Below are positions 234 to 2,086 of a stretch of 40,116 bases of DNA, one piece after another (within the stretch, counting starts at the first letter, position 1; the number at the start of each line of letters is the position of its first letter). Under the pieces are notes generated by a model that searched no databases, was not told the DNA's origin, and saw only the letters and a program-made list of their open reading frames with translations. Position numbers and translations under genes: made by a program. The stretch comes from a virus (taxonomy: Duplodnaviria; Heunggongvirae; Uroviricota; Caudoviricetes), in IMG/VR virus record IMGVR_UViG_3300042346_001601; one strand, written 5' to 3'.

Positions 234-1139
234 ATGCAACACCTCCAATCCTTTTCCCTGTTCGAAGCCCGAGCTTCTATTTTGACGAGCTCCAGGAAGG
301 CATTTTTGAATAGATACACTCGAGGACGCTGGTCGGTCAACCCAGAGACAGGGCTAGTGGATGTAAAGGGAAGTTTTGCTTGTGGAGGTAAAAGATTAAA
401 GAGCTTACAGGGCATCTCGTTCGGACATGTCAGTGGGAATTTCTACTGTCAAGGCAACCAACTGAACTCCCTGGCTGGGGCACCTCAGACGGTGGGTGGG
501 GATTTCTCCTGTTTCAGAAACCAGCTGACGACCCTGGTCGGAGCACCCCAGACGGTAAATGGGAGTTTCGACTGTTCCGGCAACCAGCTGACGACCCTGG
601 TCGGGTCACCTCAGACGGTGGATGGGGGTTTCTCCTGCGGCGGCAACCGGCTGACGACCCTGGTCGGGGCACCCCAGACGGTGGATGGACATTTCCTCTG
701 TTCCTACAACCAGCTGACGACCTTGGCCGGGGCACCTCAGACGGTGGGTGGGCATTTTATCTGTTCCAGCAACCAGCTGACGACCCTGGTCGGGGCACCC
801 CAGACGGTAGATGGGGATTTCTCCTGCGACTCTTTCGAAGTCCGGAGTGGGAAATGGAATCCCCAGGGCTGGGCCGAGATTCTGGCCACTGGCGATAGCA
901 AAGCCCGGAGGCTGATTGTGACCCTGTTCGATGCCGGCTTCTGGCTGCAGAAAGTGAAGGGGGATCTGAAGAAAGACGGCCAGGTGCTCCTGCAGCTGGC
1001 GTCCCTCTGGGATGAGCCAGGCTGGGAGGAGCAGAGACAGGAGATCGAACAGAGACTCAGTCCTGAGCAGCTTCGGGTCATCAAGGCCCTAAAGACCAAA
1101 TTGGACTACGTCAATCCCTGGAAGGACGGGATTGTCTAG
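234..1139 (+). CDS. Leucine-rich-repeat protein (21-aa VxGxFxCxxNxLTTLVGAPQT repeats) with leader peptide and conserved C-terminal domain
   Basis: 301 aa; six full repeats plus a partial; N-terminus MQHLQSFSLFEA; C-terminus shared with neighbours. Confidence 0.9.
   Translation: MQHLQSFSLFEARASILTSSRKAFLNRYTRGRWSVNPETGLVDVKGSFACGGKRLKSLQGISFGHVSGNFYCQGNQLNSLAGAPQTVGGDFSCFRNQLTTLVGAPQTVNGSFDCSGNQLTTLVGSPQTVDGGFSCGGNRLTTLVGAPQTVDGHFLCSYNQLTTLAGAPQTVGGHFICSSNQLTTLVGAPQTVDGDFSCDSFEVRSGKWNPQGWAEILATGDSKARRLIVTLFDAGFWLQKVKGDLKKDGQVLLQLASLWDEPGWEEQRQEIEQRLSPEQLRVIKALKTKLDYVNPWKDGIV
429..827 (+). repeat. 63-nt tandem coding repeat, 6 full units plus a partial
   Basis: CAGACGGT recurs at 486, 549, 612 and onward with a 63-nt period. 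Confidence 0.95.
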
Positions 1140-1140
1140 A

Positions 1141-1148
1141 GATATATA
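1141..1148 (+). promoter_or_regulatory. GATATATA box
   Basis: Context identical to the 221 copy (205-271 equals 1125-1191). Confidence 0.7.
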
Positions 1149-1153
1149 AGAGC

Positions 1154-2086
1154 ATGCAACACCTCCAATCCTTTTCCCTGTTCGAAGCCCGGAAGACTTC
1201 AGGCCTGACCCCCGACCAAGAGGCATTTTTGAATGACTGCACCAAAGGGCTTACCAAAGGGACCTTTTTAGGGACCTGGTCGGTCAACCGACGGACCGGT
1301 CTGGTCGATGTGGAAGGAGATTTTTACTGTAGTGGCAGCGGACTGAAGTCTCTGTCGGGCATCTCGTTCGGACATGTCAGTGGGCATTTCTGGTGTTCCC
1401 ACAACCGGCTGACGACCCTGGTCGGGGCACCCCAGACGGTGGGTGGGGGTTTCGGCTGCGACAACAACCATCTGACGACCCTGGTCGGGGCACCCCAGAC
1501 GGTGGGTGGGGGTTTCTCCTGCGGCAGAAACCAGCTGACCTCCCTGGTCGGGGCACCTCAGACGGTGGGTGGGGGTTTCAACTGCCACCAGAACCAGCTG
1601 ACTACCCTGGTCGGGGCACCCCAGACGGTGGGTGGGAGTTTCTTCTGTTACAACAACCGGCTGACCTCCCTGATCGGGGCACCCCAGACGGTGGGTGGGA
1701 CTTTCGACTGCGTCTTCAACCAGCTGACGACCCTGGCCGGGGCACCTCAGAAGGTGGGTGGGTATTTCTACTGCGACTCTTTCGCACTCCAAAAGGGGAA
1801 ATGGAATCCCCAGGGCTGGACCAAGATTCTGGCCACTGGAGATAGCAAAGCCCGGAGCCTGATTGCTCCCCTGTTCGATGCCGGCTTCTGGCTGCAGAAA
1901 CTGAAGGGAGACCTGAAGAAAGACGGTCAGGTGCTCCTGCAGCTGGCAGACCTCTGGGATAATCCAGGCTGGGAGGAGCAGAGACAGGAGATCGAACAGA
2001 GACTCAGTCCTGAGCAGCTTCGGGTCATCAAGGCCCTAAAGACCAAATTGGGCTACGTCGATCCCTGGAAGGACGGGATCGTCTAG
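1154..2086 (+). CDS. Leucine-rich-repeat protein, tandem paralogue of 234-1139
   Basis: 310 aa; same leader, repeat scaffold and C-terminal domain; different N-cap and variable repeat residues. Confidence 0.9.
   Translation: MQHLQSFSLFEARKTSGLTPDQEAFLNDCTKGLTKGTFLGTWSVNRRTGLVDVEGDFYCSGSGLKSLSGISFGHVSGHFWCSHNRLTTLVGAPQTVGGGFGCDNNHLTTLVGAPQTVGGGFSCGRNQLTSLVGAPQTVGGGFNCHQNQLTTLVGAPQTVGGSFFCYNNRLTSLIGAPQTVGGTFDCVFNQLTTLAGAPQKVGGYFYCDSFALQKGKWNPQGWTKILATGDSKARSLIAPLFDAGFWLQKLKGDLKKDGQVLLQLADLWDNPGWEEQRQEIEQRLSPEQLRVIKALKTKLGYVDPWKDGIV
1376..1774 (+). repeat. 63-nt tandem coding repeat, 6 full units plus a partial
   Basis: Units start at 1376, 1439, 1502, 1565, 1628, 1691 and 1754. Confidence 0.95.

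Follow-up and report, generated by a model that had tools for sequence, protein, structure and literature searches.

Tandem arrays of hypervariable leucine-rich repeat genes in a large lake phage: probable diversification by selection and cassette recombination, and a possible role as injected binders

The window analyzed here is a 40,116-nucleotide (nt) stretch of DNA from a phage of the class Caudoviricetes (IMG/VR virus record IMGVR_UViG_3300042346_001601). A multigene family of this phage, encoding leucine-rich repeat (LRR) proteins, is organized in two tandem arrays, one of which occupies positions 1 to 2232, and in dispersed, AT-rich copies. The genes of the array and their parts are as follows.

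1 to 219, + strand: 3′ end (C-terminal helical domain) of an upstream paralog; an open-ended open reading frame (ORF) whose C-terminal sequence is that of genes A and B, with 92 to 95% DNA identity to other copies.
234 to 1139, + strand: LRR gene A, 301 amino acids (aa), with leader, N-cap, seven 21-codon units, C-cap, and helical domain; phrog_21719.
234 to 266, + strand: leader of gene A, 11 codons, MQHLQSFSLFE followed by Ala; it resembles the capsid-targeting sequence (CTS) of phage T4 and has an L-x-E end.
429 to 869, + strand: seven 63-nt units of gene A, starting at 429, 492, 555, 618, 681, 744, and 807.
1154 to 2086, + strand: LRR gene B, 310 aa, with the architecture of gene A as judged from its translation and an AlphaFold2 (AF2) model.
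1154 to 1186, + strand: leader of gene B.
1376 to 1816, + strand: seven 63-nt units of gene B, starting at 1376, 1439, 1502, 1565, 1628, 1691, and 1754.
~1775 to 2083, + strand: helical C-terminal domain of gene B.

Since the paralog at 1 to 219 is open-ended, three or more genes must follow one another in the array, which extends past the edge of the window. The IMG/VR record of this large uncultured phage (G000; 177 kb, linear, 74% complete) begins at window position 800, within gene A; this places an assembly break in the array, where the tandem repeats interrupt short-read assemblies, and means that the window was taken from a longer assembly. The second array of the same phage, at G000:C1 116216–119116, holds three paralogs, C, D, and E. 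Each gene encodes ~260 to 370 aa and consists of an 11-residue leader, an N-cap, 5 to 10 units, and a conserved six-helix C-terminal domain. All metagenome runs that contain the sequence are from lake water.

The consensus of the units, V-x-G-x-F-x-C-x-x-N-x-L-T-x-L-x-G-A-P-Q-T, is a 21-residue Cys-ladder LRR. Five codons, 2, 4, 6, 8, and 9, are hypervariable; they flank the core F and C of the β strand. The original prediction had noticed that in the 14 units at 429 to 1774 three of these codons (4, 6, and 8) vary at bases 1 and 2 and keep the third base, and had read this foremost as a mark of mutagenesis like that of a diversity-generating retroelement (DGR), which turns AAY codons (Y, pyrimidine) into NNY. 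The counts behind that prediction were reproduced from the sequence. The codon before F ends in T in all 14 units, and the codons after F and after C each end in C in 13 of 14, the exceptions being TGG in unit 1 of gene B and CAA in unit 1 of gene A, respectively. The Cys codons TGT and TGC occur 7:7, and the Asn codon AAC is invariant in all 12 units having this Asn. Two further features had been missed: codon 2, after V, ends in T in 14/14 units (AGT, GGT, AAT, or GAT), and the second codon after C breaks the rule in 5/14 (AGA, AGA, CAG, TCT, and TCT).

The same bias was evident in larger sets of units. Among 37 units from five full paralogs, T ended codon 4 in 37/37 and codon 2 in 36/37, and C ended codon 6 in 33/37 (the remainder being Trp and Arg codons) and codon 8 in 34/37 (the remainder being CAA). 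We also collected 83 distinct units of the GC-rich clade, that is, from close relatives found in ENA, JGI, and NCBI assemblies of several lake samples. Here, codon 2 ended in T in 83/83 and codon 4 in 82/83; codon 6 ended in C in 70/83 and in G in 11 (TGG 10 times), and codon 8 ended in C in 75/83 and in A in 8 (CAA 7 times). Because only 43% of NNY codons in the non-repeat parts of these genes end in T, the fixation of third bases is far beyond chance if the units are independent; they are not independent.

The fixed third base stood up in the larger sets, but for the most part it is no special signature. Framework codons 12, 15, 18, 20, and 21 have third bases as fixed as those of the hypervariable codons, and codons 3, 10, 14, and 17 nearly so; silent variation is concentrated at codons 1, 5, 7, 13, 16, and 19. 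In the sister phage L093, which has a GC-rich array at the same syntenic place (a flanking gene is 77% identical), codon 2 is NNA in 28/28 units, and codon 4 ends in T in 19, in A in 7, and in C in 2, with synonymous GGA/GGT and GAC/GAT pairs among them. L093 fixes another third base, and the fixed base is therefore clade-specific, as descent predicts. When units of the 83-unit set depart from the majority third base at hypervariable codons, ~36 departures change the amino acid (TGG 10 times, CAA 7 times, AGA 7 times, CAG, AAA, and others), versus 4 that are synonymous. Departures that nearly always change the residue fit selection on amino acids and are forbidden for an AAY-to-NNY mutator. 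An NNY codon with a fixed third base is, on its own, not diagnostic of a DGR.

Base composition and codon usage alone were also considered as a cause and rejected. They explain the C at codons 6 and 8, and context bias partly explains the T at codon 4, since in other genes of this phage 80% of NNY codons end in T before TTY versus 51% before A; however, composition and context without shared descent cannot yield 37/37 T. In a family-wide set of 956 distinct units from 79 viral loci, obtained by an alignment-based scan, the third bases of codons 6, 8, and 9 are variable and track local composition.

The amino acid–changing variation at the hypervariable codons was quantified as nonsynonymous and synonymous differences per site (pN and pS) from Nei-Gojobori counts. 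For the 32 full units of this phage, codons 2, 4, 6, 8, and 9 have a pS of 0.09 and a pN of 0.53, giving a ratio of 5.8, which rises to 8.5 for codons 4, 6, and 8; the framework has a pS of 0.205 and a pN of 0.06 (ratio of 0.29). In the 83 clade units, the hypervariable pN/pS was 4.6 (bootstrap, 3.4 to 6.0), and the ratio to framework pS was 2.6 (2.3 to 3.0).

Traces of recombination are found at the level of both units and genes. A gene from another sample (L085) aligns with bases 127 to 441 of gene C, ~five units, with 4 mismatches in 315 nt (311/315). It keeps the first five unit signatures of gene C, has another sequence in place of the 5′ 120 nt, and lacks two units. Unit signatures (DHYGG, NSDSG, and GNYDN) recur across genes and samples, and the numbers of genes and units differ between contigs, with up to six genes in a row. 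In Logan contigs from 24 lake-water runs, the repeats are represented by 70- to 190-nt pieces whose differences lie mostly at hypervariable codons and possibly come from paralogs. Alternative junctions in these contigs, a 189-nt back-step and skips of 1079 and 1166 nt, are weak hints of unit or gene recombinants.

Overall, the pN/pS excess, the shared unit signatures, and the cassette variant in L085 bear out what the original prediction had kept as a fallback, namely, very strong diversifying selection with gene conversion. We consider it highly probable that diversifying selection and recombination of units and genes, not a DGR, drive the evolution of this family. On the evidence above, the 63-nt units are young or continually homogenized copies of one ancestral unit, with most bases identical, silent ones included. 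Amino acid–changing substitutions have built up under strong diversifying selection in the five codons next to the core F and C, and homologous recombination duplicates and deletes the resulting unit cassettes and carries them from gene to gene and strain to strain. What stays fixed at the third bases is a remnant of the ancestral codons (NNT at 2 and 4; NNC at 6 and 8), reinforced by the C-rich codon usage that goes with the high GC content of these genes and by the tendency of this phage toward T ahead of TTY.

Several observations weigh against this reading. Synonymous diversity at codons 2, 4, 6, and 8 is 0.04 versus a framework average of ~0.2; it falls in the lower 2% tail of framework four-codon subsets (5% with codon 9 included), in a test that was post hoc and used non-independent units. 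Such low diversity is not fully predicted by descent alone. Family-wide, codon 4 ends in T in ~93% of its Y-ending codons, whatever the local GC content at third positions (loci L002 to L080). This exceeds the T-before-TTY bias (0.80), so some site-specific constraint remains. The array lies at an assembly break and its contigs shatter, and the order of units may contain assembly errors; per-unit statistics are unaffected. Last, with the phage record 74% complete, the absence of a reverse transcriptase (RT) is not established for this very phage.

Selection and recombination acting on LRR units have parallels. The Flavobacterium psychrophilum LRR loci and Dictyostelium LRR proteins have hypervariable x positions and repeat recombination and no retroelement (PMC10392669). 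Together with lamprey variable lymphocyte receptors (VLRs) and plant nucleotide-binding LRR (NLR) receptors and receptor-like proteins (RLPs), these loci, including those of Dictyostelium purpureum (PMC10392669), share with the phage family a constant framework with x-position variation near the β strand, tandem gene arrays, variable unit number, recombination between units, and a residue spectrum in which Y, D, N, H, S, and G are prominent. Unlike them, the phage genes lack a secretion signal or membrane anchor and carry a T4 CTS–like leader and a private helical C-terminal domain without a match in the PDB. Lamprey VLRs are, in addition, assembled somatically, which is not the case here. Directly after gene B, at the edge of the array, lies a degenerate copy.

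~2130 to 2232, + strand: decayed 3′ remnant of another paralog; 2135 to 2180 match the C-terminal coding part of intact copies at ~85% (blastn).

This remnant is a sign of erosion at the array edge, comparable to the fragment-rich F. psychrophilum LRR loci.

The assignment of the proteins to the LRR class is supported by the 21-residue units, their F-x-C-x-x-N-x-L core, and the fact that all top PDB folds are LRR domains. The AF2 model of gene B (predicted local distance difference test score, pLDDT, of 90.3; predicted template modeling score of 0.82) consists of an N-cap, an LRR solenoid, and the six-helix C-terminal domain, with one short strand at F-x per unit; residues 1 to 15 are disordered (pLDDT of <50). 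The best PDB folds were the LRR domains of SspH1, IpaH, and YopM (probability of 1.0; 25 to 30% identity), with Foldseek E-values reaching only ~2e-3. The model of the helical C-terminal domain had a pLDDT of 88.5 and no meaningful match in the PDB (best E of 2). The family has >2300 matches, mostly viral and none named; LRR_4 is precomputed on some homologs. No Pfam family scored above threshold on genes A and B, where the Pfam LRR models were sub-threshold, and the ESM Atlas gave features of <0.9 and, as named clusters, viral LRR clusters only.

The only sequence-model match, for gene A, was to NCBIfam internalin J (NF033187) at 6.8e-12. Its score, 44.5 bits, is far below the cut-off of 1700, and there is no LPXTG motif; identity as a class 1 internalin (InlJ) was rejected, and the likeness is limited to the repeat type. 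Listeria internalin J and the effectors SspH1/SspH2, IpaH, and YopM resemble the phage proteins in their 20- to 21-residue repeats and, through the internalin J match, in the conserved core Cys. The phage proteins differ in having no NEL ligase domain, LPXTG motif, or type III secretion signal.

The original prediction had placed the variable codons on the ligand-binding face of the LRR. The part that holds is that they flank the F/C core of an LRR solenoid at x positions that are exposed in the canonical geometry. Their mapping to the concave face follows from DSSP strand positions and standard LRR geometry rather than from coordinates, and we take the concave location as likely on these grounds. 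The variable face presumably binds variable host molecules.

Family members outside the arrays, and the leader that they share with the array genes, bear on what the proteins may do. Two such copies lie in the window.

9712 to 10875, − strand: dispersed, AT-rich, diverged paralog P0132, 387 aa; phrog_21719 at 1.4e-17; leader MKNELNFNIFE followed by Gly.
14219 to 15175, − strand: second dispersed, diverged, AT-rich relative, P0133, 318 aa; leader MKHLVPFLIFE followed by Ser; a few recognizable units.

P0132 has the C-terminal domain type of the array genes, and L093 carries an ortholog of it (60% identity) at the syntenic position. At the start of family members, the 11-residue leader takes the form M-K/Q-H-L-Q-x-F-S-L-F-E followed by A or S. 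Its E11 is invariant, and L9 and F10 are nearly so, in 26 homologs. A strict leader pattern had 7 N-terminal matches in this phage versus 0.05 expected. Among these seven, a 98-aa ORF at 36167 to 36463 (+ strand), otherwise unrelated to the LRR family, starts with MKTYHQFLNE followed by Ala; 6 of these 10 positions equal the T4 CTS MKTYQEFIAE, and position 8 has L for I.

Phage T4 loads internal proteins into the prohead by means of this 10-residue CTS, which the gp21 protease cuts at L/I-X-E; its residues 4 and 7 are important in targeting, and its residues 8 and 10 in processing (PMC8442874, PMC9026906). The internal proteins of T-even phages are a diverse anti-restriction set with only the CTS in common (PMC3012670). 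The phage leader has what a T4-type CTS has, an N-terminal position, a length of ~10 residues, and an [LI]-x-E end. Like the leaders of T4 IPI, IPII, and IPIII, it is hydrophobic at position 4, has F at position 7, and closes with [LIV]-x-E ahead of a small residue. As in T4, one leader is found on otherwise unrelated, fast-evolving proteins, and a gp21-type protease is present in complete relatives: Peptidase_S77 (gp21-type prohead protease) scored above cut-off in 4/4 complete relatives carrying the family, although it had no match in the 74%-complete record of this phage. The differences are that the phage leader is one residue longer, that its cargo consists of repeat binders rather than small basic proteins, and that its role is deduced from sequence. 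A literature search for a CTS linked with LRR proteins found no paper.

Since the T4 CTS–like leader ends in L-F-E and a gp21-type protease occurs in complete relatives, we propose that the proteins are loaded into the capsid, that the leader is trimmed, and that injection then delivers them together with the DNA, as a binder repertoire. By analogy with T4, packaging in the capsid is, on balance, the favored fate of the LRR proteins. That the injected proteins act as binders against variable host proteins is a more tentative proposal, which we would rate at somewhat below even chances. The same holds for the broader idea that the arrays are a germline-encoded phage repertoire of hypervariable LRR binders, capsid-loaded and injected to neutralize host defense or surface-remodeling proteins that are themselves variable; this, too, is possible rather than probable. 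Such a repertoire would be an internal-protein arsenal built on a scaffold of the immune-receptor type and renewed by cassette recombination. The state of the phage record counts against the proposal: at 74% completeness, it has no gp21 or gp23 match and lacks head genes.

The main alternative accepts the same genes and the same evolution and makes the proteins external virion adhesins or host-range determinants, or has them act in the cytoplasm, with another role for the leader. LRR domains are often adhesins, as in internalins and the surface LRR arrays of F. psychrophilum (PMC10392669), the window is rich in structural-looking proteins with LamG and β-propeller domains, and neither a protease nor a capsid gene was found in the 74%-complete record. 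Against this, the proteins have no signal peptide and no tail fiber–like domain. The leader persists even in strongly diverged members and is also carried by proteins of this phage that are unrelated to the family, with the L-x-E end at which gp21-type proteases cut, and all four complete relatives have such a protease. We therefore regard adhesins or cytoplasmic proteins as unlikely, while giving them appreciable weight.

Returning to how the hypervariable codons arise, some targeted hypermutation, such as repeat-directed error-prone repair or a deaminase, might act at these codons, selection only filtering its output. The low synonymous diversity of codons 2, 4, 6, and 8, below the framework mean while bases 1 and 2 are near saturation, would suit such a mutator, as would the family-wide T of codon 4 beyond context bias. 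However, no enzyme that might do this was tied to the arrays, the variable positions show all four bases and point to no single-base source, third bases do change when the residue changes, and units are stably inherited between strains. Ratios comparable to those measured here are known at selected binding sites without any mutator. In addition, Dictyostelium LRR proteins have the same Y/D/H/N-rich variable positions (PMC10392669). A targeted mutator is thus very improbable.

Even less probable is an assembly artifact, in which short-read assembly of tandem repeats would have produced chimeric units and a spurious pattern: the IMG/VR record does start inside the array (window position 800), and Logan contigs come in 70- to 190-nt pieces with alternative junctions, but reads are longer than a 63-nt unit, zero differences were seen in several unitigs that come from four independent runs, and the pattern recurs in independent ENA, JGI, and NCBI assemblies.

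The DGR of the original prediction fares worst. It would have an RT copy a short template with AAY codons, the error-laden complementary DNA (cDNA) then replacing each unit by mutagenic retrohoming. NNY codons variable at bases 1 and 2 do resemble AAY-to-NNY conversion, the residues at the variable sites (D, N, S, Y, G, and H) are those that AAY mutagenesis gives, and the phage record is only 74% complete. Nevertheless, the components that the original prediction had named as worth seeking were not found. The RT family PF00078 had 0 matches in the 177-kb record and 0 in five related records with several family copies, four of them 100% complete, in a search whose controls gave matches; the Avd-like family PF05635 had no match in the 177-kb record. 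By blastn and a framework-matching scan, all but one of 33 unit-like 63-mers lie inside coding arrays, and they carry at most 6/10 adenines at the variable bases; the 177-kb record thus holds no template in the form of an adenine-rich noncoding copy of the unit.

The spectrum of changes is not adenine-specific either. At codon 18, GCA retains its silent adenine in 82/83 clade units, and the adenines of CAG, ACG, and AAC are fixed. At base 1 of codons 6 and 8, A is almost missing (3/83 and 5/83, respectively) and T prevails. Sites without adenine are polymorphic (TGT/TGC, GTC/GCC, CCC/CCT, and ACC/TCC), and TGG, CAA, AGA, and CAG cannot be derived from AAY. Moreover, the hypervariable codons are identical over ~five units in the L085 variant from another sample.

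The likeness to DGRs such as that of Bordetella phage BPP-1 (Mtd, template region, bRT, and Avd) consists of NNY codons variable at bases 1 and 2 in the ligand-binding surface of a phage protein, and it is superficial. In the phage described here, the target is an LRR solenoid, neither a C-type lectin nor an immunoglobulin fold, and there are many dispersed 63-nt targets, 5 to 10 units per gene, rather than one C-terminal variable region. A literature search for DGRs with LRR targets found no paper, and no DGR is known whose targets are as many as 30 separate units of 63 nt, spread over at least six genes. With no RT, Avd, or template in the 74%-complete record, a spectrum that is not adenine-specific, and hypervariable codons that are stable between strains, adenine mutagenesis from a short template has next to no chance of being the mechanism; the incompleteness of the genome is the main reservation.

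The arrays also stand out by composition. GC content is 56 to 58% in the array and 33 to 46% in the remaining window; more generally, the LRR arrays of this phage and of its syntenic relative (L093:5950–10733) have 55 to 58% GC within phage genomes of ~38 to 45% GC. GC-biased gene conversion in the recombining array, or an old transfer, may account for the difference between GC-rich arrays and AT-rich dispersed paralogs. A pattern-based scan of genome contigs, whose result depends on the search patterns, found only four loci, in alphaproteobacterial metagenome-assembled genomes, and a host origin of the GC-rich copies gains no backing from them. A phage collection searched by megablast with the array and with 24 kb of the window gave no match, and exact look-up of gene B in an assembly collection gave no record.

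Two other genes of the window encode large repeat-containing proteins. At 5326 to 8553 (− strand), a 1075-aa protein has DUF5122 β-propeller repeats (6.8e-67) and two LamG-like domains; it is missing at the syntenic place of L093. At 21747 to 24506 (+ strand), a 919-aa protein matches phrog_20754 (annotated as protease) in its N-terminal part and has C-terminal DUF285 repeats (6e-31).

Had it held, the repeat-by-repeat action of a DGR on LRR units would have added a new class of target to those known for DGRs; that claim is rejected. What remains is a case of very strong diversifying selection, with a pN/pS of ~5 to 8 at five codons, within homogenized phage repeats whose cassettes are exchanged between genes and strains. 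The codon signature itself is ordinary, and the gene family combines known kinds, hypervariable LRR repertoires and T4-type leader-tagged cargo. If the leader is indeed capsid-directed, the family would offer compact, Cys-stabilized binder scaffolds whose natural variation is already mapped, and large freshwater phages would inject panels of customizable binders, extending the T4 paradigm of internal proteins and anti-restriction.

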